A stretch of 64,000 nucleotides of DNA from Alphaproteobacteria bacterium (GCA_017480745.1 JAFUSA010000025.1:22122-86121); one strand, 5' to 3'; shown: positions 2,155 to 59,651, numbered from the stretch's first letter. Notes: generated by a model from the letters alone, not told the origin. Made by a program: numbers and translations.

Positions 2155-2422
2155 TTGACATTTGAATTTTTTGTGCTATTATAAAATCAGAACTTCGGTT
2201 CGGAGCCTTAACAAGCTCGTAATATGTGCGGTGCATTTTGCATCGTTAAAATGACGTAATATATCTCCGATTTGGGTTGGGGAGCGTTCAATGGATGTTC
2301 AGGGCGGAAGCCTAAAGATTGGATGGATCATTTCACATATTATGGTTTGTTAACTCTCCCGACCGCCGTTTGGCGGTTGATTAGTTATTAACAACAATTT
2401 TTCTCAAGAAGGAGATTTAAAA
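2155..2422 (+). promoter_or_regulatory. Promoter plus structured 5' leader of prepilin-like paralog 1 (divergent member of the conserved leader family)
   Basis: TTGACA 2155-2160, 16-nt spacer, TGcTATTAT with -10 at 2177-2182. The leader has the family architecture: hairpin CTCC/GGAG (2264-2284), distal CTCTCCC 2354-2360, CCGCC-gttt-GGCGG 2363-2376, SD GGAGA 2411-2415. Confidence 0.6.
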
Positions 2423-3193
2423 ATGAAAACATATAAAACAGAATCCGGACGATCCATGATTGAAATGTTGGGCGTTTTGGCCATTATCGGCGTGTTGAGC
2501 GTGGGCGGTATCGCCGGATATTCAAAGGCGATGATGAAATATCGCATTAATAAATCCATTGAACAGATATCAATGATTGTTACCAATGTGCGCACTCTGT
2601 TTGGCAGCCAAAAGAATTATAAAGCTTTGGGAAATATCGGAACTTCTGATGCCACTAACGGCAATGGGAGTTTAATTGCCAAAGCCAAGTTATTTCCTGA
2701 TGAATTGTTAAACGGTACTACCGGTGTGGTTGATAATCCGAATCCGTTTGGTGGCAAAATTGAACTAATATATTCAGCACGCAATGCTGGTGATGAAAAG
2801 GCGTTTATGCTTATTTTTGACAGTATTCCGGAAGAAGCTTGTATGGATTTGGCAACTCAAAATTGGGGTTCTGCTTCCGGTTCCGGTTTGATTGCGATGG
2901 CAGTGGAACCCACAGCCGCTGCTGCCCCAGCAGCTGGAGGTAGTAGCGCAAGTGCTCCATCATCTGCTCCGTTGGAAGGTGCCGCAACACCTCAAGCTGG
3001 GACGGCTTTAACCACTCCTCTTGATGCTGTATATCAGGGTAAGTGCACTGATGCATCTGGAACGGGTTCATTAAAGGCAGCTTTAAGCGGTAAGATAAAA
3101 GGTGTTTGTGGCGGTCAAAATTCTATGAGTGCCAGTGATGCCGCTACGGCTTGTGAGGGTGATTCCAATACATTATATCTGAAATTTTACTAA
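2423..3193 (+). CDS. Prepilin-like protein (type IV pilin/pseudopilin-type N-terminal helix), paralog 1 of 7, with an Ala/Pro/Ser/Gly-rich low-complexity insert
   Basis: MKTYKTESG|RSMIEMLGVLAIIGVLSVGGIAGYSKAMMKYRINKSIEQI: Gly then Glu at +5 and a roughly 20-aa hydrophobic helix, as in class III signal peptides. Family motifs AKLFPDEL, PFGG and EEACMDLATQNW are present. Confidence 0.75.
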   Translation: MKTYKTESGRSMIEMLGVLAIIGVLSVGGIAGYSKAMMKYRINKSIEQISMIVTNVRTLFGSQKNYKALGNIGTSDATNGNGSLIAKAKLFPDELLNGTTGVVDNPNPFGGKIELIYSARNAGDEKAFMLIFDSIPEEACMDLATQNWGSASGSGLIAMAVEPTAAAAPAAGGSSASAPSSAPLEGAATPQAGTALTTPLDAVYQGKCTDASGTGSLKAALSGKIKGVCGGQNSMSASDAATACEGDSNTLYLKFY

Positions 3194-3317
3194 TAAGATA
3201 AGCGTCGGATAAGGAAACTTATTTCGGCGCAATTCCTTTGCGGTAAAGGCCTTAAATAACTTATTCAAAACTTCTCTAAAAAGGTCTTATGCCGTAAATG
3301 CAAGGCTCGCGAGCCAT

Positions 3318-3343
3318 ACGCCGGAACTTTTTTGTTCCGGCGT
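3318..3343 (+). terminator. Rho-independent terminator-like hairpin downstream of paralog 1
   Basis: ACGCCGGAAC-tttttt-GTTCCGGCGT perfect inverted repeat. Confidence 0.5.
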
Positions 3344-3389
3344 AAGTATTATGGCACAAATAAGTTATCATCGGGTATAAAATAAAAAA

Positions 3390-3418
3390 GCACCGGAAAT
3401 GTATATACATTCCGATGC
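3390..3418 (-). terminator. Terminator-like hairpin downstream of the 3437..3772 gene
   Basis: GCACCGGAAATGTATATACATTCCGATGC imperfect palindrome flanked by A/T runs on both sides. Confidence 0.5.
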
Positions 3419-3436
3419 TTTTTTATTGTTGCGTGC

Positions 3437-3772
3437 TTAATCTGGTTCAATAACCTTATGTATGTTATCTTTGATCTCGGGGGCTTTTTCCAAAAAACGC
3501 CACATAACAATCATCATTACAAGGCAAACCATAGAAGCGCTGATTCCGAAAGCCACAAATCCCAAAGTGGAAAGAAGCCAAAGTGCAATACGAACCCAAG
3601 GCTTAGAAGTTACTGCTGCCCAACAAGAGAACAAAACACCTCCTATAACTCCTATGAATAAAATCGAACCTGTATCCGGATCGTTTGAAGAATACTCCAT
3701 AGGATCATTTGCCACTAACAGAAATGCTATTGCATAAGCAATGCAAATCAGAAAAAAGTAAACTTTATTCAT
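3437..3772 (-). CDS. Small integral membrane protein (hypothetical)
   Basis: 111 aa with three or four hydrophobic segments (MNKVYFFLICIAYAIAFLLV..., ILFIGVIGGVLFSCWAAV..., LWLLSTLGFVAFGISASMVCLVMMIVMW). Confidence 0.55.
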   Translation of the reverse strand: MNKVYFFLICIAYAIAFLLVANDPMEYSSNDPDTGSILFIGVIGGVLFSCWAAVTSKPWVRIALWLLSTLGFVAFGISASMVCLVMMIVMWRFLEKAPEIKDNIHKVIEPD

Positions 3773-3791
3773 AAAAAATTTTTTTTTAAGT

Positions 3792-4121: not shown

Positions 4122-4282
4122 AATATTAATAATTTTTAGGTTTATACGCCTACATTACTACATTTAAAACAAATTTGCAATACACTATTTTAAATTCGCT
4201 GTAAAAAATTTTGCTACATTCAATTATTTTCGTCTTGCTTAATTATAATTTTAGTGATAAATCGGGAAAAGTTTTATTAAGG

Positions 4283-5719: not shown

Positions 5720-5731
5720 GCGATTAAAGCT

Positions 5732-5768: not shown

Positions 5769-5831
5769 TAAACAAAAATGTTTGTGTGTTGTATGCTTTG
5801 ATGTCTGATATTTGCTAAATACATAAAATAT

Positions 5832-5858
5832 AAAAAGCTCTCAAAACGAGAGCTTTTT
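5832..5858. terminator. Bidirectional terminator-like hairpin
   Basis: AAAAAGCTCTC-aaaac-GAGAGCTTTTT lying between convergent genes. Confidence 0.6.
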
Positions 5859-5879
5859 AAACAATGCAATCAGACCATT

Positions 5880-6752
5880 TTACCAACCAAACTCAAAGTG
5901 CTGTTCATCATACAAATCCCATGCTTTGTCGGCAACCCAATCAAACAGTTTTTGCATAAGTCCGTTGGGTTCAGTTGCAGCCATATCTTCCGGATGCCAT
6001 TGCACACACAAGATGTGTTTGCTGTAACATCCCCAAGCTTCCGGAACTCCATCCAACGAAGATGCATAGAATGCCAAGTAGGACTGCGAGAAGTTCGGGT
6101 GAAGAACTGTATCGTGCCGAGAATTTGTAGTAATACAACGGTGATACTTCAACAGTCGATACAACGGACTACGTAAATCAATGTGCACCCTGTGAGCCTT
6201 TTGACGACTACTGTTATGGATAATGTGGTCACGCAGGTGAGATGTGTCGCGATGAATCTTCACTCCCATCTCTCCGGCAACCATCTGAGCACCTTTATCG
6301 ATGGCCAATATCGGTATTTCCTTTTTGAGCGCAAAGCGAATACAGTCAATGTATGCTTTGGCAGTCGCTGAGGAAAATTCGGGAGAATCGGCGTTTCCGT
6401 CCACATAATAGCGCTCCGGTAAGTCAAAATCTCCGCAAGGAAGGACCAAAGCGTAGCAGTCTTGCATCTGAACCATACAGTGCTCATAGGTCAAAAAACA
6501 GAGGTTGACTTCTGTTCTTGCCAGGGCCAAAACATAGTTCTTAGGAACGGTGTATCCGTATTCTCCTTTTTGCATCAATAAAGCAACAAACGGAGAATCG
6601 GATGCCGGAACACGACAACCCAGACCGATATAATCTTTTCTGGAGAGAGAAAGCAGAGGGGTTTCCTGTTGTTTTTCCCATACTTTTAGTTGCTCTTCAG
6701 ATACACCGAATGCGTTTAACTCTTCAATGTACTTTAACTCAGAATGTATCAT
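5880..6752 (-). CDS. Class I glutamine amidotransferase-like / peptidase C26 (PuuD-like) family protein with Asp at the nucleophile position
   Basis: IPILAIDKGAQMVAGEMG aligns to the family motif IPIFAICRGLQ, with Cys replaced by Asp. NSRHDT aligns with NSLHGQ, and the C-terminal VQWHPE motif is present. Confidence 0.6.
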   Translation of the reverse strand: MIHSELKYIEELNAFGVSEEQLKVWEKQQETPLLSLSRKDYIGLGCRVPASDSPFVALLMQKGEYGYTVPKNYVLALARTEVNLCFLTYEHCMVQMQDCYALVLPCGDFDLPERYYVDGNADSPEFSSATAKAYIDCIRFALKKEIPILAIDKGAQMVAGEMGVKIHRDTSHLRDHIIHNSSRQKAHRVHIDLRSPLYRLLKYHRCITTNSRHDTVLHPNFSQSYLAFYASSLDGVPEAWGCYSKHILCVQWHPEDMAATEPNGLMQKLFDWVADKAWDLYDEQHFEFGW

Positions 6753-7003: not shown

Positions 7004-10000
7004 ATGCAAAAATCATTGTTTACAAGATTTATTTTAAGTACAACCGCACTATCGTTCAGTTTTGCCGTGTTCTATCCGTATAGTTCGCAAGCCGCCGGTT
7101 TGGCTCCGGTTTCTTTTGAAGCAATGTATAATTTGGCAAAAAGCGGGAATGTGCAAGCTCTACGTGCATCAGTGCGCCGCGGTATGAATATTGATGTTAT
7201 GGATTCGAACGGAGATACGGGGTTATGTATAGCAGCGCAAAATAATGATCACTACACATATAATGCTTTTCGCGCTGCCGGCGCTAATCCCAATCATCCA
7301 TGCGTGCAAAAAATTGACCATTATGAGGATTTTTTGGCATCATCAAAAACTGTTGCTCTCAATGCTACTCCGCGAGAGGCTTTTAGTGCCGTTGGTTTAG
7401 AAAATTTTCATTTTCAGCCTAATTGGTGGATTGTCGGTGGCGTTGTTTTGGCCGGCGGTGCCGCAGCTTTGGCACTTAGCAGCGGTGGCGGCGGTGGAAA
7501 AAGCTCCGGTGGAAGTGGTGGAGACGATAGTAAACCGAAAGAAGAATATAATAGTTTGGCTTCTAAGCTGGCGGTAAACGGCTCAATAAAAGATACTGTT
7601 GATTCAACAAGCAAGGCTAACAGTGCTCGAATAGACGTAACAAACAGCAATACTGCGCAAATAAATACTATTGACTTTACAAAAAGTGTTTTGGATTATG
7701 CCGGATATGTTAATGTAGGGTTAAATGCTAAAAACGGTGGAAAATACACCAATGAATCCGCCGGTGTGATATATCTTACTTCGGGTGCGGTAGGCATGAG
7801 CGCTTTAACCAATTCCGAGGTTGTGAACAATGGCTTTATTCATGCTGATGCCTATAACGGTACTATTGGTATGGTAGGCAGTCAAAAATCGGTGATTACT
7901 AACAATGCTGCTGGTATAATAGCCAATGTTAACGATTCTAAGGGAATTGATTTGAATTTTTCCGGTAAGGATGGAATTGACGCAGTTATAGGTATGTATG
8001 TTGATACCAATTCACAGGCGATAAACAACGGTGATATTCGCGGAACGGCAATTCAGGCATATAGTGCCGGCACAACAACATCAGATGCTTCAACTTCTAT
8101 TGTCGGCAATATAATCGGTATGGAAGCAATGATCTTGAATGCCGGAAACGATGTTGCCGGTAAAGAAATAATTTTAAGCAATAACGGATCCGGTAATATC
8201 AATATCAGTGCCGGTGATGGTGGTTCGGGAACAACGGTTAATTTAAATTCTATCGGTATGGGAAGCTTTTTGGATAACGCTTTCTTAAACGGCTCTAAAA
8301 ATATTAACCGTGCCGAAGTGGTAACCATTAACAATAATGGCAATATTTCTATTGCCTATACCGGAACATACAGCCCGACTTCGGATACCACGCTTCGCAA
8401 AGGCACGGGAGGCGTTGTCGGTATGCGAGCCGATGCTAATACTACGGCTAACAATAGCGGAAACATTAATTTAAACTTTTCTCAATACGGTTCTTCCTCA
8501 TCACAACAGGGAATAAGCGCGGGAATGCAGTCAATTCACGGTGCTAATTTAACTAACAGCGGTAATATAAACATAACAACCATTGCCACCAATCAACTCG
8601 GTAATTATGGTATGCTTTCCGTAGAGGGTAGCGGATCTGTTTCCGGACTTTATACCGACTTAAATCAAAAGTTGAGTAATACCGGAGAAATTATTGTTAA
8701 AGCCACTAACAGTTACGGTATGGCTTCTTATAACGGTGGAACTTTAAGTAACAGCAACCACATTGCCGTAGGCAGTGCAACTGATACGCAATATAACAAT
8801 AATGTGGCAATGTATGGTTCCGGTGAAGGCACACAGGTAACTTTAAGCAATACCGGAACTATTGATGTTTATTCGTATAATTCTTATGCGATGAAAAACG
8901 ATTTTGCCGGTGCGCAAACAATACAAAACGACGGAACGATTAATATAAATTATGAAGCGACAAATTCCAAAGTTTTTGGAGGATATTATAGCTATGCCAT
9001 AAATAACGGACTTATCAACTATTATATAACGTCCGGCGGTAGTATGTCTGGAAGCGGAACAGATGCCGATGATCCTTTTTCCGAATATACTTTACAAGTT
9101 TCTCAATCTGTTTTGACTACGGAAAATTCTTCAACCTCTTCTTCAACTACGGAACTATTAACTAATAACAGTGGCAAAAACATAAATATTTACGGTTCGT
9201 CTTTTACTTCCGGTATGAGTATTATGTCTGCACGCGGTCAGGCTGAGAATTTAGGAACTATCAATCTTTTTCCGTATAGCGATAATTCCGAGTCAAATTC
9301 GGTTGTTATGTATATGGGGGACGACGGAATTAGCAGCGCAGCAATTCTTAATAGTGGAACAATTAACACAAGTTCCAATATGTCGGCGGCAATGGCCAGT
9401 GATTCATCACAAAATTCCCGCGTTATTAACTATGGAACCATTAATACTTCTAAGCCATATTCTATCGGGCTCTATGCCTCAGGTAGAAGTGTGTTAAATA
9501 ATTATGGTATTATAAAAATGAATGCTTCTGAAAGTGTTGGTGTGTATTCATCAGGTCCATCAAATATAATCAATACCGGCACTATAACCATCGGTTCTGC
9601 CGGCAATTCGCAGACATCGGTTTTCGGACTATATTCCAAAGGTGCGAACATTTCAATTACCAACGGAGATGATAGCGGAGTAGCCGCCGCTATAAATGTT
9701 TATGCAACAGGAAAACATAATGCAGGTATCTATGCCTCCGGAGATTACAATGTTGTATATAACAAATCCGGAGCCGTTATCGGCGGTAGTATATATAACG
9801 GTATTTCAATAACCGGAGCCAACAATACGGCGGTTAATTACGGCACGATCAGTGGTGTAGAAAACGGTATTTTCTCAGACGGTGAGAAAGCAACCATTGT
9901 AAACAGTGGGCTTATTACGGCAAGTACCTACGGAATACAAGCCAAACAAAGCGGTAGCAATATTACAAACAATGGCACTATAACTTCGGCAGATACAGGT

Positions 10001-11656
10001 ATTTGGGCTTATGCCGAGGGAACATCGGAAGAAGAAAAAACAACCATTACCAATAACGGCACTATCACGGCGCCTACCGGTATTTATGTTAAAATTGCTT
10101 CACCGGATGTTTATTTGGATGTTAAAAATAACGGCGCCATAAATTCCACATCTTACCAAGTACACACCTATGGTGAATATGAAAAACCATTAGAACCTGA
10201 TGAAGATTTTGATAAAAATATTAGTGTTATCGGAGCGAGTAATTGGTATAAAGAATATGAATCATACGAGAAAGAAACCCAAACAGCAGAAACAGCATTT
10301 AGAATACCTGCAAAACGTAATTGGAACTTCATCAATAACGGAACATATTATTCTGCCACAGCGTTAAACTTTGATAATTCGTTCTTCAATTTTGTTTTGG
10401 ATGAAAATGCGTCTTATGTTGCTCCGGCTTTAAGCGGAACAGTAAATTTGGCTGATAACGTGGTATCATCCGGTTTTGAAAATGAATATGCGGTTAAAAA
10501 TGCTTTTGTCGGAGCCAATAAAGGTATTGTACTTAATAACAATTTATACATGTTTGAAAATACTTTGCGCGAAAATTCATCCGGCGCCTTAGATGCCGTT
10601 GCCACTATGCGTGATTTCGGAGAATTGATGAAAAATCAATCGTTGGCTAAATATTTGTCGGCAAACTATCAACAACAGAATAACGAAAATTTATATTCCG
10701 CGCTCAAAACAACGCGTAGTGCAGCTGCGTTTGATGCTGTAATAAATAAAAAATTCGCCCTTGATTTTGTGCCTAATTTAGCCAAACAAAATTTGGATAA
10801 TATGCAAATTATCGATCGTGAAATAAATGATGAATTGTTAGAAAAAACTTATTTGCCTAAGAGGTATTCGGTTAAAGTTGTTAGCTATAAAAAAGATGTT
10901 GACGGTAAACATGAAATAAGCGGATATAAAGATAAGGTAACATCGGTTTATGGATTCGGCGATCACTATTTGGGGCATAATATGCGTGGCGGTTACGGAT
11001 TAAACGTTACGCGTAGCGACAGTGATTTTGATAACGATTCTTCTCGCTATAACAATGTTGTAGAAGCGTTTGCTCCTGTTTTGTGGAACAAGGCGGATAC
11101 TTCGGCTTTGGTTAAATTAAAAGCAGGTTTCGGACGCGGACATTATCGTCGCATCGGATTAAATAACGCTCCGCATAAAATGCAAACCAAAGAGTATTAT
11201 TATGGATTTGATACTGATTTTCGCCATGATTTTGACTTAGGAGCATTAGTTTTGGAACCGCATATCGGTTTTGACACAACCGCTATGTATATGGATAATT
11301 CAGGCGAAAGCAACGGTGGTTTGAAATTAAAAGACGAAAATATTGTTTCGGCAAAGTCTGTAATTGGTCTGAAGCTGAAAAAAAGTTTTGATTTTAACTA
11401 TAATCAGTCGCTTGATTTGAGTGCCGGTGGAACATATTATCACGAATTTGGTAATAAATATCGTCAGTCGGTTGCCGCAGATGGAATGAGCGGTGTTTAT
11501 GAAATTGCCGATGGTCGTATGCAACGCAATTTCGGTTTGCTCAATATGAAAGCCAAATATCAATATAAGCAATTTTCGTTAGGTGTATCGGCAAATGCAC
11601 CTCTTGAACAGAAAAATAACGCTTATTATATGCTTGATTTAGGGTATAAATTTTAA
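7004..11656 (+). CDS. Autotransporter outer membrane protein with a large repetitive passenger and a C-terminal beta-barrel
   Basis: 1550 aa. Signal peptide MQKSLFTRFILSTTALSFSFAVFYPYSSQA. The Asn/Gly/Ser/Thr-rich passenger repeats N-x-G-x-I motifs. The last ~280 aa show alternating beta-strand patterns and end in ...YMLDLGYKF (terminal Phe). Confidence 0.8.
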   Translation: MQKSLFTRFILSTTALSFSFAVFYPYSSQAAGLAPVSFEAMYNLAKSGNVQALRASVRRGMNIDVMDSNGDTGLCIAAQNNDHYTYNAFRAAGANPNHPCVQKIDHYEDFLASSKTVALNATPREAFSAVGLENFHFQPNWWIVGGVVLAGGAAALALSSGGGGGKSSGGSGGDDSKPKEEYNSLASKLAVNGSIKDTVDSTSKANSARIDVTNSNTAQINTIDFTKSVLDYAGYVNVGLNAKNGGKYTNESAGVIYLTSGAVGMSALTNSEVVNNGFIHADAYNGTIGMVGSQKSVITNNAAGIIANVNDSKGIDLNFSGKDGIDAVIGMYVDTNSQAINNGDIRGTAIQAYSAGTTTSDASTSIVGNIIGMEAMILNAGNDVAGKEIILSNNGSGNINISAGDGGSGTTVNLNSIGMGSFLDNAFLNGSKNINRAEVVTINNNGNISIAYTGTYSPTSDTTLRKGTGGVVGMRADANTTANNSGNINLNFSQYGSSSSQQGISAGMQSIHGANLTNSGNINITTIATNQLGNYGMLSVEGSGSVSGLYTDLNQKLSNTGEIIVKATNSYGMASYNGGTLSNSNHIAVGSATDTQYNNNVAMYGSGEGTQVTLSNTGTIDVYSYNSYAMKNDFAGAQTIQNDGTININYEATNSKVFGGYYSYAINNGLINYYITSGGSMSGSGTDADDPFSEYTLQVSQSVLTTENSSTSSSTTELLTNNSGKNINIYGSSFTSGMSIMSARGQAENLGTINLFPYSDNSESNSVVMYMGDDGISSAAILNSGTINTSSNMSAAMASDSSQNSRVINYGTINTSKPYSIGLYASGRSVLNNYGIIKMNASESVGVYSSGPSNIINTGTITIGSAGNSQTSVFGLYSKGANISITNGDDSGVAAAINVYATGKHNAGIYASGDYNVVYNKSGAVIGGSIYNGISITGANNTAVNYGTISGVENGIFSDGEKATIVNSGLITASTYGIQAKQSGSNITNNGTITSADTGIWAYAEGTSEEEKTTITNNGTITAPTGIYVKIASPDVYLDVKNNGAINSTSYQVHTYGEYEKPLEPDEDFDKNISVIGASNWYKEYESYEKETQTAETAFRIPAKRNWNFINNGTYYSATALNFDNSFFNFVLDENASYVAPALSGTVNLADNVVSSGFENEYAVKNAFVGANKGIVLNNNLYMFENTLRENSSGALDAVATMRDFGELMKNQSLAKYLSANYQQQNNENLYSALKTTRSAAAFDAVINKKFALDFVPNLAKQNLDNMQIIDREINDELLEKTYLPKRYSVKVVSYKKDVDGKHEISGYKDKVTSVYGFGDHYLGHNMRGGYGLNVTRSDSDFDNDSSRYNNVVEAFAPVLWNKADTSALVKLKAGFGRGHYRRIGLNNAPHKMQTKEYYYGFDTDFRHDFDLGALVLEPHIGFDTTAMYMDNSGESNGGLKLKDENIVSAKSVIGLKLKKSFDFNYNQSLDLSAGGTYYHEFGNKYRQSVAADGMSGVYEIADGRMQRNFGLLNMKAKYQYKQFSLGVSANAPLEQKNNAYYMLDLGYKF

Positions 11657-11728: not shown

Positions 11729-12469
11729 TTATTTTAACCTTGTTTTCCACGGTTCAGCGTTTACGTCTATATCAAAATAAAATCCTACATCATCTATGTA
11801 TCTATCAGCACAATACTTAACAGCATTATCTACCGTTACCGGCGTTTTCAAATACGTTCCGCGATTAGTTCCATCAACCACAAAAATTGCCGCAACATTA
11901 GCGTTAGTCCAATCTTGTGATACTAATTCAATACAGGCTTCATCAGATTCTATTTCATACGACATCTTAAAAGCTTTGTTTTGTTCTGTTGATGATTTAT
12001 CAATAGAATAAAGTGAAAATCCACCGCCAAAAGCATTGGTAGTATCTGCTCTCGATCGCGATCCCATAGGTCCCTCAGATATATTACTCAACATTTCATC
12101 GGGAAGAAGTTTTGCCTTAATTACCACCGGACAGTCTACGTCACAATACGCTCCTTCATAACTTCTTTGCGGAGCAAAAAATGCTCGCACATTGCCGGCA
12201 ATTAAAGTTATCTGCTCGATAGTTTTGTTAATGCGATACTTCATCACTGCTTTGGAATATCCGGCGATTCCGCCAACGCTTAACACACCGATAATTGCCA
12301 GCACGCCAAGCATCTCTATCATGCTTCTTCCGCATTGCGGCGCATCTGCTTGTCTGTTTTTCGCTGGTGTACTGTCTGTGTACACGGCACTCAAAACGGC
12401 CGGCGCATCTGCACCACTCTTCGGAAGAAGTGAACGACCATTTTCATTTTCTAAATCAAAGTTTCTCAT
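11729..12469 (-). CDS. Prepilin-like protein, paralog 2 of 7 (47-aa leader peptide)
   Basis: MRNFDLENENGRSLLPKSGADAPAVLSAVYTDSTPAKNRQADAPQCG|RSMIEMLGVLAIIGVLSVGGIAGYSKAVMKYRINKTIEQITLIAGNVRAFF. Family motifs KAKLLPDEM, AFGGG and EACIELVSQDW are present. Confidence 0.75.
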   Translation of the reverse strand: MRNFDLENENGRSLLPKSGADAPAVLSAVYTDSTPAKNRQADAPQCGRSMIEMLGVLAIIGVLSVGGIAGYSKAVMKYRINKTIEQITLIAGNVRAFFAPQRSYEGAYCDVDCPVVIKAKLLPDEMLSNISEGPMGSRSRADTTNAFGGGFSLYSIDKSSTEQNKAFKMSYEIESDEACIELVSQDWTNANVAAIFVVDGTNRGTYLKTPVTVDNAVKYCADRYIDDVGFYFDIDVNAEPWKTRLK

Positions 12470-12715
12470 AGTAAACTTCCTTTCATTAAAGTTGTTGTTT
12501 TAATATTAAAATTGCCGCCTCATGAGGCGGCTGGAAGTTCAAAGCTATTATAAGTTAAATAGTGTAGCTTATTAAAACATGTTCTATTCGGCTACCTTCC
12601 AGCCATGCTGGAAAATTTTTACGTCCTTAAAGACGAACTTATAAGAGGCTTTGAAACCCCAGATGACTTTTACCTCATCTTATACTTGTTATACCATAAA
12701 AAGTTCAAAAGTCAA
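12470..12715 (-). promoter_or_regulatory. Promoter plus conserved structured 5' leader of paralog 2
   Basis: On the minus strand: TTGACT (12715-12710), N16, TGgTATAAC (-10 at 12693-12688). Leader hairpins are AGATGA/TCATCT, CGTC/GACG, TTCCAGC/GCTGGAA and GCCGCC-tcatga-GGCGGC (12514-12531), followed by AAAGGAAGTTTACT-ATG. Confidence 0.7.
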
Positions 12716-12863
12716 ACAAATTTTATACAGAGCAAAAAAAATTTTGCATAACTGTAAAAAAAGTTCTTTACATTTATGAAAAATGTGCTATATGACTTGA
12801 CAACGACAAAAAATATTATCTGGTGGAGCGTAAAAGCCCCGCTTTTTTATTAAAGGATGCGCG

Positions 12864-18455: not shown

Positions 18456-18525
18456 TATGGAAAATCCTCTCGCAAGAGAGGTTTTTCTGATTTAAGAAGA
18501 TAATTCGGCAAATTTAAAAAATAGT

Positions 18526-18769
18526 TTGACTTCTGTATTTTTTGTGGTATAGTTAAAATCAAGATGAGGTAACTTGTCTGAGGTGTCGAAACCTCTTGTA
18601 TGTTCGTCTTTTATAGACGTTAATTTTCCGGCAATGGTCGGAAGGTTGCAAAATAAAGCATGTGCTAATATGCGACACTATTTAACATACAGTAGTTTCG
18701 AACTTCCGGCCGCCTCAGTAGGCGGTTGTTTTAATGTAATTCAACAACAAACATGAAAGGAAGTTTACT
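18526..18769 (+). promoter_or_regulatory. Promoter plus conserved structured 5' leader of paralog 3
   Basis: TTGACT 18526-18531, N16, TGgTATAGT (-10 at 18548-18553). Hairpins are GAGGT/ACCTC, CGTC/GACG, TTCCG/CGGAA and CCGCC-tcagta-GGCGG (18710-18725) followed by TTGTTTT, then AAAGGAAGTTTACT-ATG. Confidence 0.7.
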
Positions 18770-19417
18770 ATGAGAAACTTTGAAATTAAAAATAATGCTT
18801 CTCTCTCCCTTTGCGGGCGAGGAAGCCAGTATGGTCGTTCTATGATTGAGATGCTTGGCGTGCTTGCCATAATCGGCGTTTTAAGTGTTGGCGGTATCGC
18901 CGGATATTCAAAAGCCATGACCAAATATCGTATCAACAAAACTATTGAGCAAATAACTTTAATTGCCGGAAATGTGCGAGCATTTTTTGCCTCGCAAAGA
19001 AGTTATGAAGGATTAAATAATAGTGATGTTATCAAAAAAGCCAAACTTGTGCCCGAAGAGATGATAGAAGATCGTGGTGAGTATATAGAAATAATAAACG
19101 CTTTTGGAGGCAGTTGTTATTTGGATACTTATGACAACAATAAATCTTTTGGCTTTTCCTGTTATGGAATATCGGAAGAAGCATGTATTGAATTACTTTC
19201 TTTTGATTGGAGTGCTACAAATGCCAACGGAGCTATCTTATGTACGAATAATGGCCCTGAGTATGATTATTATTTACGTTTGCCCATAGATTTAGATAAA
19301 GCCGTAACGTATTGTCATAAAGCTTTTGAAGAAGCGGACTCTGATGATTTGTTTGTTTTGGGATTAACGTTTGATTTAGATAAAAATTCAGATTTATGGA
19401 AGAACACGTATAAATAG
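18770..19417 (+). CDS. Prepilin-like protein, paralog 3 of 7 (22-aa leader peptide)
   Basis: MRNFEIKNNASLSLCGRGSQYG|RSMIEMLGVLAIIGVLSVGGIAGYSKAMTKYRINKTIEQITLIAGNVRAFF. Family motifs KKAKLVPEEM, AFGG and EEACIELLSFDW are present. Confidence 0.78.
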   Translation: MRNFEIKNNASLSLCGRGSQYGRSMIEMLGVLAIIGVLSVGGIAGYSKAMTKYRINKTIEQITLIAGNVRAFFASQRSYEGLNNSDVIKKAKLVPEEMIEDRGEYIEIINAFGGSCYLDTYDNNKSFGFSCYGISEEACIELLSFDWSATNANGAILCTNNGPEYDYYLRLPIDLDKAVTYCHKAFEEADSDDLFVLGLTFDLDKNSDLWKNTYK

Positions 19418-19652: not shown

Positions 19653-19729
<77 letters not shown>

Positions 19730-24816: not shown

Positions 24817-25059
24817 AGTAAACTTCCTTTCACTTAATTAATTGTTTTAACACCAAAATAACCGCCCACTGAGGCGGCCGGAAGCGCAAACTATCTAACA
24901 TGATATAGTGCAGGTTATTTGATTACTCTTATTCACCCACCTTCCAGCCATAGCCGGAAATATTTAACGTCTCTATATGACGCATGTTAGAGAGGCTTGC
25001 GACCCCAGACAAGTTACCTCGTCTTGCTTTTACTATACCATAGAAAAATCAAAAGTCAA
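24817..25059 (-). promoter_or_regulatory. Promoter plus conserved structured 5' leader of paralog 4
   Basis: On the minus strand: TTGACT (25059-25054), N16, TGgTATAGT (-10 at 25037-25032). Hairpins are AGAC/GTCT, GGGGT/GCCTC, CGTC/GACG, TTCCGGC/GCTGGAA and CCGCC-tcagtg-GGCGG (24862-24877), followed by AAAGGAAGTTTACT-ATG. Confidence 0.7.
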
Positions 25060-37229: not shown

Positions 37230-37319
37230 GGAGAGATGGCAGAGCGGTTTAATGCAGCGGTCTTGAAAACCGTCGAGGGGGCGACCCCTCCAAGAGTTCG
37301 AATCTCTTTCTCTCCGCCA
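37230..37319 (+). tRNA. tRNA-Ser (anticodon TGA)
   Basis: GGAGAGATGGCAGAGCGGTTTAATGCAGCGGTCTTGAAAACCGTCGAGGGGGCGACCCCTCCAAGAGTTCGAATCTCTTTCTCTCCGCCA: 90 nt with a long variable arm, anticodon loop CTTGAAA and encoded CCA. Confidence 0.9.
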
Positions 37320-48970: not shown

Positions 48971-48977
48971 GTGAAAA

Positions 48978-50303: not shown

Positions 50304-50954
50304 TTAATAAAAAGTATGCTCAAATGTTTCAGTTCCATCAAAAGATAAAAATAGATATTCTCTTGTTCGATTAGAGCAGATAGTTTGTGCCACAGCTATA
50401 TCCGGAGTTGACATACAGTTTGGATTTGGCGCGTATGCACAAATATATTTTGCACCTGTGGCAGACCAATCTTGACTCATTAAATCAATACACGCTTCTT
50501 CCGGTACCTCATCATAATATATACAAAAATACCCTTTGCCTTGATCAACTTGATTTTCATTGCTGTGTGCAAATCCAGTCAAATCGACATTTCCACCGAA
50601 TGGATTAGTCATAGCGGTAATATTGCCATCTGAATCCAAAGTTAACATTTCATCCGGCACAAGTTTGGCTTTTTTAATTATTGTCATTTTATCATTACTA
50701 TTCAAATCTGCGTAACTTCTCTGATTTGCAAAAAATGTATGAATATTACCGGCAATGAGAGTTATTTGCTCAATGGTTTTGTTAATGCGATACTTCATCA
50801 TTGCTTTGCTATATCCGGCGATTCCACCAACGCTCAAAACACCGATAATTGCTAAAACACCCAACATCTCAATCATTGAACGACCGCTCTGCACGCTTTT
50901 CGTCATTGCGAGCGCAGCGTGGCAATCATTATTTTTTATTTCTAAGTTTCTCAT
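50304..50954 (-). CDS. Prepilin-like protein, paralog 6 of 7 (24-aa leader peptide)
   Basis: MRNLEIKNNDCHAALAMTKSVQSG|RSMIEMLGVLAIIGVLSVGGIAGYSKAMMKYRINKTIEQITLIAGNIHTFF. Family motifs KKAKLVPDEM, NPFGG and EEACIDLMSQDW are present. Confidence 0.78.
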   Translation of the reverse strand: MRNLEIKNNDCHAALAMTKSVQSGRSMIEMLGVLAIIGVLSVGGIAGYSKAMMKYRINKTIEQITLIAGNIHTFFANQRSYADLNSNDKMTIIKKAKLVPDEMLTLDSDGNITAMTNPFGGNVDLTGFAHSNENQVDQGKGYFCIYYDEVPEEACIDLMSQDWSATGAKYICAYAPNPNCMSTPDIAVAQTICSNRTREYLFLSFDGTETFEHTFY

Positions 50955-51192
50955 AATAAACTTCCTTTCATTTTTGTTGTTATTACATTAAAATAACCGC
51001 CCACTGAGGCGGTCGGAAGTTGAAAGCTATTACAACATAAATAGTGTCGCATATTAGTACAAACCTATTCTGCAACCTTCCGACCGTAGTCGGAAATTTA
51101 ACGCCTTTAAGGCGATGTTGTAAGAGGCTTTCAAACCTCAGACAAGTTACCTCATCATGAGTTTACTATACCATAAAAAATCTAAAAGTCAA
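50955..51192 (-). promoter_or_regulatory. Promoter plus conserved structured 5' leader of paralog 6
   Basis: On the minus strand: TTGACT (51192-51187), N16, TGgTATAGT (-10 at 51170-51165). Hairpins are GAGGT/GCCTC, CGCC/GGCG, TTCCGAC/GTCGGAA, distal CTTCCGAC and CCGCC-tcagtg-GGCGG (50997-51012), followed by AAAGGAAGTTTATT-ATG. Confidence 0.7.
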
Positions 51193-51219
51193 ACTGTTTT
51201 TAGGAAAATCAGCAAAAAT

Positions 51220-51732
51220 CTACATTGCACCGGTTAAAGAGTTAACTGACACCGTGGCGACGATACATATTACCCAACATATCGTTGTATATATCAGCGG
51301 ATATTTCAGCAAAGGACTGCGCAAACTCATATCTGCTTCCGGCTTGCTCGGCAAAACACACAATAGCAAAATCATCGTATAAAAAAAACTCATAACGTAT
51401 CCGGTATATTGTCCGATAATAATATCCTGCGATATTGGAACAATATGCTCCACACTTCTCCTTATAATGCACATAGTGTAACAAACAACAAAAAATGTTC
51501 CTTTCATATTAGCGTCGCGGCTCCGCTTTTGAATAGCCGCTAATGCCGGATAAAAAAGCAATAATTCTGCAATATATGCAAGCATGGAGGCTCCGATTTC
51601 TTGAACCAAGCGATTACACAAATAAATCAAACTCAAAACCCAAATCATCATCGGTTGTGTAGTACGCCCCTCAAAAGAAAATATTTCTTTTAATTCTTTT
51701 TTGCCTAATAAATCCTTTGGATATTTCATCAT
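51220..51732 (-). CDS. DUF805-like integral membrane protein
   Basis: FSFEGRTTQPMMIWVL resembles the DUF805 F.F.GR..R..YW motif. There are four or five TM helices. Confidence 0.4.
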   Translation of the reverse strand: MMKYPKDLLGKKELKEIFSFEGRTTQPMMIWVLSLIYLCNRLVQEIGASMLAYIAELLLFYPALAAIQKRSRDANMKGTFFVVCYTMCIIRRSVEHIVPISQDIIIGQYTGYVMSFFYTMILLLCVLPSKPEADMSLRSPLLKYPLIYTTICWVICIVATVSVNSLTGAM

Positions 51733-51793
51733 GGATCTCCTACTTCTATTAAGTATATACTAATATATACCTAATAGAAGTCAATATATAAAA

Positions 51794-52369
51794 TTATTTT
51801 TTACTTGAATAATAATTCATAAGAGCCGCATCAACATCTATAAAATGATTCGTTAATTTATTTAAGTTTCCCACTCCTGCTTGATCAGCTCTATTTTGTA
51901 ATTTGCGTTGTCGATCAGTATACGAATTATTCATATCTGTATCAATAATCTCTCCGTATATACCACCGGTAAGACCATTGGCGAATCTTTCTAATCCGCC
52001 GAATATACCTTCTCCCAAACCAGAAATAGCACTTGTCGGAACTCCATTAAAATTGGAATTTTCCCAATTATGACTTATATTTTTAGTAGCATCATACACA
52101 TTATCAATATAACTTGCCATGCTATTGCTGTATTTTTGCAAATCAGGTGGTGTGGAGGTAATGTAATATTGCTCCTGTTTCGGCATTGTTATCTGATATT
52201 GCTCTTGAATAGCAGTTTGAGCCGGCACTTCATTTTGAGGCTGAGATTCATTATACCACGTAAAATTACCGATATCGGTTTGCAATGTTTGCGGATTACT
52301 TAAATATCCATTTTCGCGCATTACACGCTCTACTGTTTCATGAACAGTCTCCGGTTTTCCTTTATACAT
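51794..52369 (-). CDS. Hypothetical protein, possibly phage-derived
   Basis: The start is set at ATG 52369 (MYKGKPETV...) after AAGGAT. It lies immediately downstream of the terminase gene. No family recognised. Confidence 0.4.
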   Translation of the reverse strand: MYKGKPETVHETVERVMRENGYLSNPQTLQTDIGNFTWYNESQPQNEVPAQTAIQEQYQITMPKQEQYYITSTPPDLQKYSNSMASYIDNVYDATKNISHNWENSNFNGVPTSAISGLGEGIFGGLERFANGLTGGIYGEIIDTDMNNSYTDRQRKLQNRADQAGVGNLNKLTNHFIDVDAALMNYYSSKK

Positions 52370-52521
52370 TTTAATATCCTTTAAAAAACGAAAGCTGTGT
52401 GCAAACAACACACGACTTATACTGTTGTGAAAAAATAAGCGAAACAAATCCTTTCTTCTTGTTTCACTATAACTAACAAAACAATGTAACTATTTTTTCC
52501 TAAATCATCTTTATCATCTCC

Positions 52522-53841
52522 TTACCATGAATTGTTATTGTGTTTAATCTGAAACAGACTTTCAATGCTGTTTTCCGGCGGAATTCCATGCTCGGCATAA
52601 CTATTGTCATACACAGGCTCGGCGAATGTAAGCGCCAATGCATCGGCAAAATCTGGTGAATGTCCCAAACGCTTTTTTATCTCGTCTTTTTCTTCTAATT
52701 GCAGGCGTCCGCGACTGTCATATTTTTTATTCACCGCACATAGCTCGGCCAATAATCTTTCGTCATATGGAATTTTAACGCAGGCTTCTTGTTGCAACCA
52801 TATTCGCAGTTCGTCCCACATTTCTGCCCGACGGTTATGATAACGATCATCGGCAACGGCTTTTGCTCCAAACATTACGGGTCGCACAATTTTTTTAAAT
52901 CCGCGATCAAGCAAAATATCTACCACTCCGCCGCCGACACCTCCGGCATCAATAAAAACACGCATCGGATTATATTCACGAATGTAACGGGTTGCTTGAT
53001 TTGCCACAGCCACATTATCTAACTTCGCAAAACTCATAAATTCGGAACAAACACGCCCGCGTCTGAAACAAAATACACTTTTATCATCGCCGAAACGGGC
53101 TACATCAAGTCCTATAATTAACGGAGAATGTGTAATAAGTCCGCAATTTTCCGTCGCTCGTCGCACATCAGCATAAGCTATAAGCTTATAATCTCCGGCA
53201 GAACGAGGCGCTCCTAACCATATATGCTCATAATCTTGCGGGTTTTCACGTTTGCATTTTTCGGCCAAATAGCGCATTTCTTCCGGACAAAACGGATTAT
53301 CTTGATAGTTTACTTTAACAATTAAAGTGTGTTCGTCAGGGTTAATGGCAAGTGCTTGCCAAATAGGGTCATTTTCTTCTTCACGGTTCATCGAAATCCA
53401 AATTTCCGAACCTGTCTTGCGAATGGTCGGATCTAACACTTCCCAACTGCGACGACTGATTTTTTGCGCCTCTTCCAGCCAAACAATATCAATACCTTCA
53501 AGCGATTTTATATTTGCGGCATTTTGTTCTTGCAAACCCTTAAAAATAAAGCTTGTGCCGCTGATTTGGTTAATTATTTGAGTTTCTGTGGTTTTATAAT
53601 CGCTCAGTTCATAAAAAGCTATGCGATCACACAGCAATTTATGCACGGAATCTTTAATACTCTCTTGCACCTCACGCATACAGGCGATGCGCAGTTTTTT
53701 CATACGACCTAAAAACAACAAGCTGTCTGCAAAGGCATATGACTTTCCGCCGGCTCGTCCGCCATAAAAAAGTTTATACCTCTTCTTTTGACGTATCAGC
53801 GGGGCAAATATCTCCGGTATTTGTGCTGTTTTCTCTTTCAT
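52522..53841 (-). CDS. Phage terminase large subunit (PBSX/Terminase_3-like)
   Basis: 439 aa with Walker A YKLFYGGRAGGKSYAF, Walker B-like IVWLEEAQ, and a C-terminal nuclease-like region with LDVARFGDD ... FIDAGGVGGGVVD. Confidence 0.8.
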   Translation of the reverse strand: MKEKTAQIPEIFAPLIRQKKRYKLFYGGRAGGKSYAFADSLLFLGRMKKLRIACMREVQESIKDSVHKLLCDRIAFYELSDYKTTETQIINQISGTSFIFKGLQEQNAANIKSLEGIDIVWLEEAQKISRRSWEVLDPTIRKTGSEIWISMNREEENDPIWQALAINPDEHTLIVKVNYQDNPFCPEEMRYLAEKCKRENPQDYEHIWLGAPRSAGDYKLIAYADVRRATENCGLITHSPLIIGLDVARFGDDKSVFCFRRGRVCSEFMSFAKLDNVAVANQATRYIREYNPMRVFIDAGGVGGGVVDILLDRGFKKIVRPVMFGAKAVADDRYHNRRAEMWDELRIWLQQEACVKIPYDERLLAELCAVNKKYDSRGRLQLEEKDEIKKRLGHSPDFADALALTFAEPVYDNSYAEHGIPPENSIESLFQIKHNNNSW

Positions 53842-56035: not shown

Positions 56036-56258
56036 CTTATTTTCCATGCACTGAGATATAACATTATAATGCAAAAAAATAAAGCAAATTTTTAGGCTTT
56101 TAAACGTTTTGACGGGTTATTTTCGGAATGACTTATTAAAGTAAGTTTAAATTAAGCAAATTTTGTGCAATTTTTTTGCAAAAATGCACAAAAAGACTGG
56201 ACAAAATGTAAAAAGTATGTTATAAATGTATATATAAACTTTATATGGAGTTGTTATA

Positions 56259-57626: not shown

Positions 57627-57653
57627 GTTAAGGTAAAGTAAAGGAGAAAAGCC

Positions 57654-58616
57654 ATGGGAAATTTCAGCGGTGATTTTTTAGATTATCTGGCGGCAAAAGG
57701 CGAGGGTAATGATTTTTATTTGGCACAGTCGCCGGATTTAAAAGATGAGGAGATTGCACGCTTAACTGCTAAATATTCATATAAGTATGAAGTTTGGTTG
57801 AGTGTTCCTGGTATAATTCGGCAGAGATACGGTAATGATGTTCCGCAGGAAATTTTAGATGCGGCAGCTCGCGGCGAGGTACAAACATTGCGTGAAATGG
57901 AACAACATCCTGAAATTAAGAGGGTTGAAGATGCTCGAGCTGCTGTGGCAGAAAAATATTCAATGCCGGCTGATATTATTAATGATATGGCCGCTGCGGT
58001 ATTTATTGCCGCAGCCAGCGCCGGTTATTCATTGCATGCGGCGCATGAATTGGCTCAACAACGTCAATTCCGCGAATCTTTGCGTGATAAAGCTCTTAAT
58101 AACACCATGACTGATGAAGAAAAACAAGCATGGCGTGAAAGCAGAATTAAAACAAGAGATATAATCAAAAAAGATTTGATGGAAAATCAGCCGGAAAAAT
58201 ATTTGCTTCACTTGTTAGCAAAATATAACCGTGGGCATATCAGCAAAGATGATTTAATGCCTCAGGTTGCCGATTTGGTTCAGCGAATTGAGACAAACGG
58301 ACGTCAGGATAAATTATTAAATTTGTTGAAAAATCAACGTGTCAGCCGCAGAATGCAACACTTTAAACCAGAAACATTGGATATTTTATCCAGTAGTGTT
58401 TTGGCTAAGGTTCCACAAGATGAGAGGGATAATATTTTGTCGCGTATTCCACGAAAAGCGAAGATTTTTGAAAATATGTCTGATGAGCAGAAAAGCAAGT
58501 TTTTGTCACAAGAGATGCGTCAGGCAAATAGCAATGTTCAACGCACTTTGAGCAGCGACAGTATTCGTGAAAATATGCCTTCGGTAATGCGTCAGCAAAA
58601 CGTTCGCTCAATGTAG
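57654..58616 (+). CDS. Hypothetical protein (320 aa, helical and charged)
   Basis: AAGGAGAA RBS 6 nt upstream. Tightly coupled to the preceding ORF. No recognisable domain. Confidence 0.5.
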   Translation: MGNFSGDFLDYLAAKGEGNDFYLAQSPDLKDEEIARLTAKYSYKYEVWLSVPGIIRQRYGNDVPQEILDAAARGEVQTLREMEQHPEIKRVEDARAAVAEKYSMPADIINDMAAAVFIAAASAGYSLHAAHELAQQRQFRESLRDKALNNTMTDEEKQAWRESRIKTRDIIKKDLMENQPEKYLLHLLAKYNRGHISKDDLMPQVADLVQRIETNGRQDKLLNLLKNQRVSRRMQHFKPETLDILSSSVLAKVPQDERDNILSRIPRKAKIFENMSDEQKSKFLSQEMRQANSNVQRTLSSDSIRENMPSVMRQQNVRSM

Positions 58617-58639
58617 AATATTTGTTCAATTTAATATCG

Positions 58640-58663
58640 GCTCCGCTGTTTAAGGCGGAGCCG
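58640..58663 (+). repeat. 24-nt hairpin-containing direct repeat, copy A (terminator of the upstream operon)
   Basis: GCTCCGCTGTTTAAGGCGGAGCCG is identical to 59628-59651. It contains the GCTCCGC/GCGGAGC stem. Confidence 0.85.
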
Positions 58664-58693
58664 GTGTTGCTTTTTGTGTTTTTTTAAAAGTAT

Positions 58694-58940
58694 TTGACTT
58701 TAAAAAAAATATATGATAATACAAGAATAAGATGAGGTGAAAATCATCTGGGGTCTGAAAACCTCTCAATTTGCGTCAGTAAAAGACGTTAAAATCGTTT
58801 CCGACTAAGGTTGGAAGGTGGGTGAATAAGAGAAATTAAATAACTCACACTATTCAAATTGATAGTTTTCAGCTTCCAGCCGTCTTATCTGGCGGCAATT
58901 TTGGTATTAAAACAACTAATTTAATGAAAGGAAGTTTACT
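58694..58940 (+). promoter_or_regulatory. Promoter plus conserved structured 5' leader of paralog 7
   Basis: TTGACT 58694-58699 and TGaTAATAC around 58714-58722. Hairpins are AGATGA/TCATCT, GGGGT/ACCTC, CGTC/GACG, TTCCGAC/GTTGGAA, distal CTTCCAGC and GCCGTC-ttatct-GGCGGC (58879-58896), followed by AAAGGAAGTTTACT-ATG. Confidence 0.7.
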
Positions 58941-59606
58941 ATGAGAAACTTTGAAATAAAAAATAATGATTCTCTCTCCCGCAAAGGACGAGGGAGCCAG
59001 ACTGGTCGTTCAATGATAGAAATGTTGGGCGTTCTTGCTATCATTGGTGTTTTGAGTGTTGGTGGAATTGCCGGATATTCAAAGGCAATGATGAAATATC
59101 GCATCAATAAAACCATTGAGCAAATAACACTAATTGCCGGTAATGTGCGTGCCTTTTGGGGACCACAGAAGAATTATATCGGGGTGAGTTGTTCTGGATA
59201 TAATTGCAAAGCCTCCGGTTGCTCTGGGCAATCTTCCGGTGATGGCTGCCCTATACATAAAAAAGCCAAAATATTCCCTGATGAAATGATTACTGTAACT
59301 AATGGTAAGATTATGTCTATTACCAATCCTTTTGGTGGAGAGGTTAATTTATATTCAGTAGTGAAATCTCAAAGCGGTGATATGCAGGCGTTTGTAATGG
59401 AATCCCTATTACCTCAAGAAGCATGTATTGAGTTAGCAACTCATGATTGGAGTAGTGCCGGAGTTAACGCAATCTCTATTAATGGTCCTGTACCATTAAT
59501 AACACCGCCAGTAGATTTAAATTTCGCCACAGATAATTGCTTTGATGGTTATAACGAGATACGTTTACATTTTGGTATAGATGTCAATTCTAATTTTTGG
59601 AAATAA
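58941..59606 (+). CDS. Prepilin-like protein, paralog 7 of 7 (22-aa leader peptide, Cys-rich C-terminal class)
   Basis: MRNFEIKNNDSLSRKGRGSQTG|RSMIEMLGVLAIIGVLSVGGIAGYSKAMMKYRINKTIEQITLIAGNVRAFW. Motifs KKAKIFPDEMITVTNGKIMSITNPFGG and QEACIELATHDW are present. Confidence 0.78.
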   Translation: MRNFEIKNNDSLSRKGRGSQTGRSMIEMLGVLAIIGVLSVGGIAGYSKAMMKYRINKTIEQITLIAGNVRAFWGPQKNYIGVSCSGYNCKASGCSGQSSGDGCPIHKKAKIFPDEMITVTNGKIMSITNPFGGEVNLYSVVKSQSGDMQAFVMESLLPQEACIELATHDWSSAGVNAISINGPVPLITPPVDLNFATDNCFDGYNEIRLHFGIDVNSNFWK

Positions 59607-59627
59607 CGTTTTTAAACAAATCACCAA

Positions 59628-59651
59628 GCTCCGCTGTTTAAGGCGGAGCCG
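59628..59651 (+). repeat. 24-nt hairpin-containing direct repeat, copy B (terminator of paralog 7)
   Basis: GCTCCGCTGTTTAAGGCGGAGCCG is identical to 58640-58663. Confidence 0.85.

Follow-up and report, generated by a model that had tools for sequence, protein, structure and literature searches.

Seven dispersed pilin-like genes

The window, as the whole stretch of 64,000 nucleotides analysed here is called, comes from an Alphaproteobacteria bacterium (GCA_017480745.1 JAFUSA010000025.1:22122-86121) and is part of a 97.6-kb metagenome contig (ENA ERZ27256836 k141_665522). It carries seven prepilin-like genes (copies 1 to 7, Table 1), scattered singly and each preceded by an RNA leader. The seven coding sequences with a common N-terminal block that were listed in a preliminary description of this DNA were all verified in position and strand. 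The sequence G/RSMIEMLGVLAIIGVLSVGGIAGYSKAM (the slash after Gly marks the putative cleavage site) is encoded by exactly seven open reading frames (ORFs) of the window, and in a six-frame motif search of the window IEMLG, KYRINK and the downstream motifs occurred seven times, with no fragments. Two further paralogs (L083:5138-5791 and L085:16881-17576; L numbers are our handles for loci) lie on the same contig just beyond the window, for a contig total of nine paralogs in approximately 85 kb. Each copy is a stand-alone unit, as had been proposed, with its own promoter, leader, ribosome-binding site (RBS), gene and a stable downstream hairpin (-12.6 to -25.9 kcal/mol).

In the alignment of the seven copies 28 residues are invariant (G-R-S-M-I-E-M-L-G-V-L-A-I-I-G-V-L-S-V-G-G-I-A-G-Y-S-K-A), and so are KAK, P..E, FG, EAC, W and the C-terminal Cys. 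The conservation of motifs downstream of the N-terminus, noted before, holds in this alignment, with KAK.P[DE]E, [PA]FGG and EACI[ED]L...DW invariant or nearly so. The class III signal is made up of Gly at -1, Glu at +5 and approximately 20 hydrophobic residues; G/RSMIEMLGVLAIIGVLSVGGIAGY is invariant in all seven copies and in 88 homologues. The pre-sequence ahead of the invariant Gly is 9 to 58 residues long in this alignment. For most copies the score on PilS (PF08805), on Bundlin (PF05307) or on both exceeds the Pfam gathering cut-off; these two families represent the head domain of type IVb pilins. Combined into a profile, 88 family members match the solved structures of the BfpA bundlin (1zwt, E=1e-5) and PilS of Salmonella Typhi (1q5f, E=0.008), and the NPFGG and ACI.L motifs line up in both of these PDB profile matches. 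The AlphaFold2 model of copy 6, computed on the family alignment (mean predicted local distance difference test score, pLDDT, 80; predicted template modelling score, pTM, 0.73), has a single long helix (residues 26-74) followed by a beta-sheet head of at least six strands. When this model was compared with the PDB by Foldseek the top 14 matches were all type IVb pilins (CofA, PilS and TcpA; probability 1.0), and no significant match other than type IVb pilins was obtained. The predicted fold is the pilin-like one, an alpha-1 helix with a beta-sheet head, the lack of which had been named in the preliminary description as a ground for abandoning the assignment. Cys192 is invariant and Cys154 nearly so in the seven copies and their homologues, and the conserved pair is placed like the disulfide that bounds the D-region of pilins, which it probably forms. 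Judged by profile and predicted fold, the seven proteins are type IVb pilin homologues, which sharpens their earlier designation as prepilin-like.

The 84 nt that code for the 28 invariant residues show 76.5% DNA identity between paralogs. Approximately 20 sites differ per paralog pair and all the differences are synonymous, including full switches between the two codon families of Ser, and likewise of Arg. The longest exact DNA match in any paralog pair is 45 nt. Because the differences are synonymous and the exact matches this short, the invariance of the N-terminus is attributed to strong purifying selection on the protein, and recent gene conversion was ruled out as its cause. The head domains are ~45-50% identical between paralogs.

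In copies 2 and 4 the pre-sequence contains an in-frame insert of ~95 nt (...GTGCAGATGCGCCG...GTGTACACAGACAGTACAC...CAAGCAGATGCGCCGC...) with an inverted repeat inside and a 12-nt direct repeat at either end. The DNA of the insert is conserved in distant metagenome-assembled genomes (MAGs) from rumen and human gut, where it is found upstream of the G-R-S codons in L001, L005, L007, L058 and L059. Insert-bearing copies encode G-R-S as GGA AGA AGC, which places a Shine-Dalgarno-like GGAAG shortly before Met+3; in copies that lack the insert the codons are GG[T/A] CG[T/A] TC[A/T/C]. The insert could be a long pro-peptide, an embedded RNA or DNA element, or an alternative internal start.

Table 1. 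Pilin-like genes, their promoters and leaders, and other features of the window (positions counted from its first nucleotide)
Feature	Position	Strand	Remarks
Copy 1 promoter and diverged leader	2155-2422	+	-35 box at 2155; weak covariance-model match 2199-2386, 23 bits; most divergent leader
Copy 1 prepilin paralog	2423-3193	+	256 aa; Ala/Pro/Ser-rich insert in head domain; PilS E=1.8e-9, Bundlin E=1.1e-7
BigA-like surface protein	7004-11656	+	1,550 aa, repeated BigA domains; convergent with copy 2
Copy 2 prepilin paralog	11729-12469	-	246 aa; 47-residue pre-sequence with conserved ~95-nt insert
Copy 2 pre-sequence insert	~12329-12430	-
Copy 2 promoter and leader	12470-12720	-	-35 box 12715; model match 12664-12506, 144.7 bits; terminator 12531-12514
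Copy 3 promoter	18526-18553	+	TTGACT-16-TATAGT, extended -10 TG
Copy 3 leader RNA	18576-18734	+	model match 156 bits
Copy 3 hairpin Pa	18580-18595	+	loop 18586-18591 is the 5' half of the pseudoknot
Copy 3 hairpin Pb (variable)	18605-18619	+
Copy 3 segment A	18625-18632	+
Copy 3 segment B	18636-18645	+
Copy 3 hairpin P2	18646-18675	+
Copy 3 hairpin P3	18678-18695	+
Copy 3 junction strand J	18696-18701	+	3' half of the pseudoknot
Copy 3 segment C	18703-18711	+	4 nt common to terminator 5' arm
Copy 3 terminator	18708-18727	+	U-tract to 18734
Copy 3 RBS	18756-18763	+
Copy 3 prepilin paralog	18770-19417	+	215 aa
tRNA-Met(CAT)	19653-19729	-	~240 nt downstream of copy 3
Copy 4 prepilin paralog	23950-24816	-	288 aa; 58-residue pre-sequence with conserved insert
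Copy 4 pre-sequence insert	~24643-24750	-
Copy 4 promoter and leader	24817-25059	-	promoter 25059-25032; model match 25010-24853, 118.5 bits; terminator 24879-24860
Copy 5 promoter and leader	30067-30306	+	promoter 30067-30094; model match 30116-30269, 130 bits; terminator 30243-30262
Copy 5 prepilin paralog	30307-31041	+	244 aa; PilS E=6.6e-11
tRNA-Ser(TGA)	37230-37319	+	central region of the window
Copy 6 prepilin paralog	50304-50954	-	216 aa; PilS E=1.5e-11; sequence taken for structure model
Copy 6 promoter and leader	50955-51197	-	-35 box 51192; model match 51143-50988, 145.8 bits
Terminase_3 region	51220-53841	-	Terminase_3 gene and small unannotated ORFs
Terminase_3 gene	52522-53841	-	phage large terminase
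Copy 7 promoter and leader	58694-58940	+	-35 box 58694; model match 58746-58904, 125.2 bits
Copy 7 prepilin paralog	58941-59606	+	221 aa; Bundlin just above cut-off

A structured leader RNA with alternative folds

A near-consensus sigma-70 promoter of the type TTGAC[TA]-N16/17-TATAGT-like is located before each copy, often with an extended -10 TG. The distance from transcription start to ATG is ~210-235 nt, the structured part taking up ~175 nt, and the leader ends in a GC-rich hairpin and U-tract ~40 nt ahead of a strong RBS. Slipped-strand phase variation at the T5-T8/A8 tract of the promoter spacer was considered and found no support: an independent sample is 100% identical over 15 kb, and a 94.5%-identical allele keeps the tract length. 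A leader peptide (ribosome-mediated attenuation) was rejected, since upstream ATG-ORFs are present in a few leaders and are unconserved.

Segment B of the leader can pair in two ways, with segment A as a local hairpin or with segment C, the latter closing a three-way junction (P1, P2, P3). In addition, the loop of hairpin Pa pairs with junction strand J as a pseudoknot. In a MAFFT alignment of 24 leaders the fold with junction and pseudoknot is 95.1% paired, with compensatory changes in 23 of 35 pairs; the controls gave 12.6±2.0 for shuffles and 4-8 when the partners were slid by 1-3 columns. The fold with A:B and terminator is 93.1% paired in the same leaders (18 of 31 pairs compensatory). 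Neither the pseudoknot nor A:B nor the terminator entered the covariance model, whose strong matches in MAG loci were confined to the sequence immediately before paralogs. Another 18 loci, each with a full-length match (123-146 bits), came from a pattern scan of metagenome contigs. Each of the 46 strong matches precedes, by 24-33 nt, a gene whose product begins ...G/RSM[ILV]EMLGVLAIIGVLS. Among 37 distinct leaders the junction fold is 97.7% paired, again with 23 of 35 pairs compensatory. In this set five of the six pseudoknot pairs (e.g., GC:22 vs CG:14 and AU:17 vs UA:16) and five of the ten A:B pairs are compensatory; both helices stand outside the covariance model, so the alignment was not fitted to either of them.

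An allele of copy 3 from another strain has multiple compensatory substitutions in the pseudoknot, Pb and P2. This allele (L082:18-306, compared with 18500-18790 of the window) is identical from the terminator 3' arm into the gene and heavily changed in the leader stems, a mosaic that suggests exchange of leader segments between paralogs.

The terminators of the leaders rank among the strongest terminator-like sites in 20 kb. The minimum-energy fold was A:B with terminator in four of four leaders tested (-60 to -65 kcal/mol). Taken together, the co-variation of mutually exclusive helices, the overlap with the terminator and the energetic preference for the terminated state are what a transcription attenuator or riboswitch that is off by default would show. 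Two features by which such an element is recognised, a conserved co-varying structured domain and mutually exclusive terminator and antiterminator pairings, are present in the leader. The pseudoknotted junction would be the on-state, and the likely recognition surface is made up of conserved unpaired nucleotides, namely the A-rich internal loop of P2 and the P3 strand CACUAU. The preliminary description had listed a leader in each unit, and one is indeed present in every unit, but its conserved, co-varying terminator/antiterminator nature went unrecognised there. As a structured RNA the leader is well supported and apparently undescribed so far, and it is the most novel part of the system.

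At gathering thresholds Rfam 15 identified only two tRNAs in the whole window, and sensitive Rfam scans of two leaders revealed no cyclic di-GMP (c-di-GMP) or other riboswitch class. The small RNA (sRNA) family sRNA-Xcc1 (RF02221) scored 27.5 bits on copy 3, against a gathering score of 53, and was absent on the homologous L051 leader; the match was not reproduced and was therefore rejected as chance. The idea of one universal leader was also dropped, as both nhmmer and the covariance model find the leader in a subset of MAGs only. The paralogs of MAG JAZNJJ have no three-way-junction leader and carry instead a perfect 34-nt palindrome, ATGTCCGAAAAAAGGGATCCCTTTTTTCGGACAT, which is present twice, abutting the RBS and ~100 nt further upstream (L009, L010, L013, L014, L015, L028, L064 and L071, at ~5800-6000 in each). 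This palindrome is a different, lineage-specific cis element at the leader position.

Family distribution, pilus machinery and genomic setting

The family is large. With one genome per GTDB species, a scan by back-translated pattern gave more than 496 tblastn-confirmed matches, several per MAG. Among the 80 matches listed almost all are MAGs labelled Alphaproteobacteria, with a few unclassified proteobacteria or apparently mis-binned names, and the named sources are rumen, colon or human gut. A word-indexed protein search returned at least 7,952 clusters of 90% identity at E<=1e-5 among 8,000 candidates; nearly all the protein matches listed are annotated as 'hypothetical protein', with locus tags scattered over individual MAGs. 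In an exhaustive search of 50%-identity representatives there were 6,602 clusters at E<=1e-3 and 4,289 at E<=1e-10. The per-genome copy number is extrapolated from nine copies per 85 kb here and from other MAGs, where the surroundings of a copy hold ~1 further copy per 48 kb. The large dispersed family that had been foreseen from the window is thus borne out by thousands of clusters, and almost all of it is seen in uncultured gut and rumen Alphaproteobacteria. No published description of the pilin family or of the leader was found in the literature searched. The genome paper of Elusimicrobium minutum reportedly describes many pilin-like genes, a possible precedent.

Some leader-bearing paralogs on metagenome contigs are truncated to 35-97 aa (L098:814-1008; L102:12313-12206, minus strand; L090, minus strand, ~2300-2500). 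These lose the frame soon after the N-terminal block, keep an intact leader and are pseudogenes, which indicates birth-and-death turnover in the family.

Pilus machinery was searched for in related genomes by motif searches of fetched loci, with confirmation by Pfam. L053 encodes a T2SSE ATPase (569 aa, E=2e-65), a T2SSF platform protein, two PilS/Bundlin pilins and a second T2SSE ATPase (321 aa). A complete type IVb operon is carried by L053 and by L086; on a 419-kb contig (locus L086) it runs in the order TcpQ, Secretin, PAP_PilO (R64 type), a 515-aa protein, T2SSE, T2SSF, a 195-aa pilin-like protein, a pilin and a second T2SSE. The operon pilin of L086 starts MRKYYQSEQSG/RSMVEMLGVLAIIGVLSVGGIAGYSKAM, which is the N-terminus of the family, and in L053 and L086 alike the N-terminus reads ...G/RSM(I/V)EMLGVLAIIGVLSVGG...; the operon pilin has no structured leader. 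The machinery ATPase is 82-99% identical across the best 120 clusters. In a further MAG, whose paralogs have the leader of the window type, a Peptidase_A24 protein of 237 aa (L049:9246-9959) is encoded 3 kb from a leader-bearing paralog. An NMO gene 63% identical to that of the window indicates that the operon-bearing organism is a relative of another species. The organism of the window is inferred from these sequences to have the same single machine, for which the dispersed genes would supply alternative subunits. The machinery was absent from 18 leader-bearing metagenome contigs, and inspection of the window ORFs that lack a Pfam match revealed neither pilin-like proteins nor machinery. The preliminary description had named the lack of a class III signal peptidase or of a filament assembly system as a sign of some other N-terminally anchored membrane protein; both are present in the related genomes, although the contig of the window shows neither.

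Between the platform gene and the pilin gene both operons encode a protein of 195-207 aa (L086:12827-13414; L053:4600-5223) with an N-terminal hydrophobic segment and pilin-like motifs (KPNYWGL...C...C), which has no G/RSMIE site or Pfam match and may be a minor pilin or initiator subunit. Directly upstream of the pilus operon, on the opposite strand, are genes for VirB4/CagE_TrbE and two TrbC (L086:1-2901). These type IV secretion genes recall the conjugative thin pili of the R64 type, and the pilus may thus be tied to conjugation or to an integrative element.

The units of the window sit amid housekeeping operons, and the neighbours named earlier (BigA-like protein, rbfA, OEP/TolC and clpX) were all found. 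By Pfam label the neighbours comprise the BigA-like surface protein of 1,550 aa, rimP-nusA-ylxR-infB-rbfA, glycogen phosphorylase, the OEP/TolC protein, clpP-clpX, an RND efflux pump, mlaA/mlaC and mreBCD. The BigA-like protein is the one that had been called an autotransporter. The Terminase_3 region is located between copy 6 and a gene of the poly(A) polymerase/CCA-adding family, and is possibly a prophage remnant.

Proposed function and alternatives

The genes are likely to encode dispersed, alternative type IVb prepilins that serve one pilus machine, each behind a terminator/antiterminator leader. Each prepilin would be cut by a prepilin peptidase behind its invariant Gly, whereupon the alpha-1N segment of 28 unvarying residues would dock the subunit into a single type IVb machine encoded elsewhere in the genome, made up of a TcpQ-like protein, a secretin, an R64-type PilO, an assembly ATPase, a platform protein and a second, shorter ATPase. 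The divergence of the heads to ~45-50% identity would put many alternative filament surfaces on offer. In the leader the thermodynamic default would be formation of A:B, upon which the terminator forms and transcription halts before the RBS. If a ligand or protein stabilised the pseudoknotted junction, the terminator would be blocked and the pilin gene transcribed. All leaders have conserved unpaired nucleotides in common, which points to probably one common signal.

The proteins share the homologous globular domain of type IVb pilins such as BfpA bundlin of enteropathogenic Escherichia coli, PilS of Salmonella Typhi and plasmid R64, TcpA of Vibrio cholerae and CofA of enterotoxigenic E. coli, and also the long alpha-1 helix, Gly at -1, Glu at +5, two conserved Cys and a mature length of ~190-230 aa. 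The machinery of the lineage is that of the TCP/R64 thin-pilus type, with TcpQ, secretin, PAP_PilO, two ATPases and a platform protein. Known type IVb systems have one major pilin and a few minor ones in or beside the operon, whereas here nine full-length paralogs are scattered singly over 85 kb. Other differences from known type IVb pilins are the Arg at +1, the 28 N-terminal residues invariant across thousands of sequences, and a promoter and RNA leader for each gene. Number, dispersal as single cassettes, Arg at +1 and the extreme conservation of the N-terminus are unusual within the pilin family.

Several observations weigh against the assignment to a filament. The N_methyl and TIGR02532 models score at or just below the cut-off on the copies; of the profile tests, those on the N-terminus, suggested in the preliminary description, were borderline, while PilS, Bundlin or both were above cut-off on most copies. 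Residue +1 after the putative cleavage site is Arg, for which we know of no precedent among prepilin peptidase substrates. No T2SSE, T2SSF, Secretin, Peptidase_A24 or Gsp/Pil Pfam family was detected in the window and ~13 kb of flanks, in agreement with the earlier statement that 64 kb lack pilus machinery; the proposed link to a machine is drawn from related MAGs and the common N-terminus. With regard to the leader, the B:C fold is 11-17 kcal/mol less stable by nearest-neighbour energies, in which the pseudoknot is not counted, and only some MAGs with the pilin family have this leader, others carrying different upstream elements. The atypical Arg and the weak N-terminal scores, along with a paralog number far above that of any characterised pilus system and the very variable length of the pre-sequence (7 to ~58 residues), would also fit a protein with a pilin fold that is no filament subunit and employs the class III signal and pilin-like N-terminus solely to enter the membrane or be exported, such as an N-terminally anchored or secreted protein, the cargo or a pseudopilin-like part of a secretion device, or a surface binding protein. 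This is considered unlikely, since homology to the major type IVb pilins extends beyond the N-terminus over the entire globular domain, the pilin within the machinery operon shares the N-terminus, and the fixation of 28 residues across species is more readily explained by subunits packed into a filament core than by mere anchoring in the membrane.

Surface variation by way of many pilin genes is known from Neisseria, and pilE/pilS resemble the present family in the many paralogs, the conserved N-terminal part, the variable heads and the host-associated bacterium. If the dispersed copies were mainly recombination donors to one expression locus, as in antigenic variation from the pilS cassettes, the conserved 5' block, the mosaic sharing of motifs among copies 4, 5 and 7, and the allele with a changed leader and identical flank, which hints at exchange between copies, would be accounted for. 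However, the pilS copies of Neisseria have neither promoter nor 5' coding part, and here each copy is whole, with a near-consensus promoter, RBS, start codon, full N-terminus and downstream hairpin, and without signs of recent conversion. Silent cassettes of the Neisseria type are excluded by the completeness of each copy as its own transcription unit; the synonymous differences and short exact matches indicate that conversion is infrequent, and structural selection on the leader indicates that the copies are transcribed. A main role as donors is therefore very improbable. The PilV shufflon of R64 also varies the exposed surface of a type IVb pilus, by alternative C-termini of a pilin; there the variation is achieved by site-specific DNA inversion in one gene, and here it would reside in a set of distinct genes, every one behind its own RNA leader.

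In Clostridioides difficile a c-di-GMP riboswitch precedes pilA1, a type IV pilin gene. This riboswitch is the nearest functional analogue, in that a structured 5' leader decides between termination and read-through of a pilin gene. The leader described here differs in that it matches neither c-di-GMP-I, c-di-GMP-II nor any other Rfam family in sequence or structure, even with E up to 10; it combines a three-way junction, a pseudoknot between loop and junction and an anti-antiterminator hairpin, and it recurs before dozens of paralogs instead of a single operon. A new class of ligand-sensing riboswitch, which would gate dozens of pilin genes and remodel one pilus surface on one intracellular or host-derived signal, is a tentative proposal only. 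We give similarly modest credence to a leader that senses no ligand, be it a constitutive attenuator, a stabilising 5' untranslated region, a source of abundant, terminated sRNA acting in trans or the target of an antiterminator protein. The terminated state is the default fold, each of dozens of loci would yield a discrete RNA of ~175 nt, a protein could bind the A-rich P2 internal loop and the P3 strand CACUAU, which is conserved in sequence, and no known riboswitch class matches. A static element is opposed by the co-variation of two exclusive helices sharing segment B and the overlap of antiterminator and terminator, which argue for regulated switching, and the combination of three-way junction, pseudoknot and conserved unpaired nucleotides is one that aptamers typically have; against a protein-mediated version none of the present evidence speaks.

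Under the favoured reading, alternative prepilins behind switchable leaders, a widespread uncultured gut and rumen lineage actively maintains a very large repertoire of complete major-pilin-like genes scattered singly over the genome. It implies another route to variation of the filament surface in the gut, be it for adhesion specificity or for immune or phage evasion, that needs neither silent-cassette recombination nor a shufflon. The 28 invariant residues amount to a definition, by natural mutagenesis, of what the assembly machine and the filament core require. With its clear terminator/antiterminator logic and its strict association with these genes, the leader lends itself to direct testing as a candidate for an orphan riboswitch or attenuator and offers a handle on the signal that controls piliation. 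If it does sense a ligand, this would be surface variation under RNA control on the scale of a regulon, of a kind that has no described precedent.

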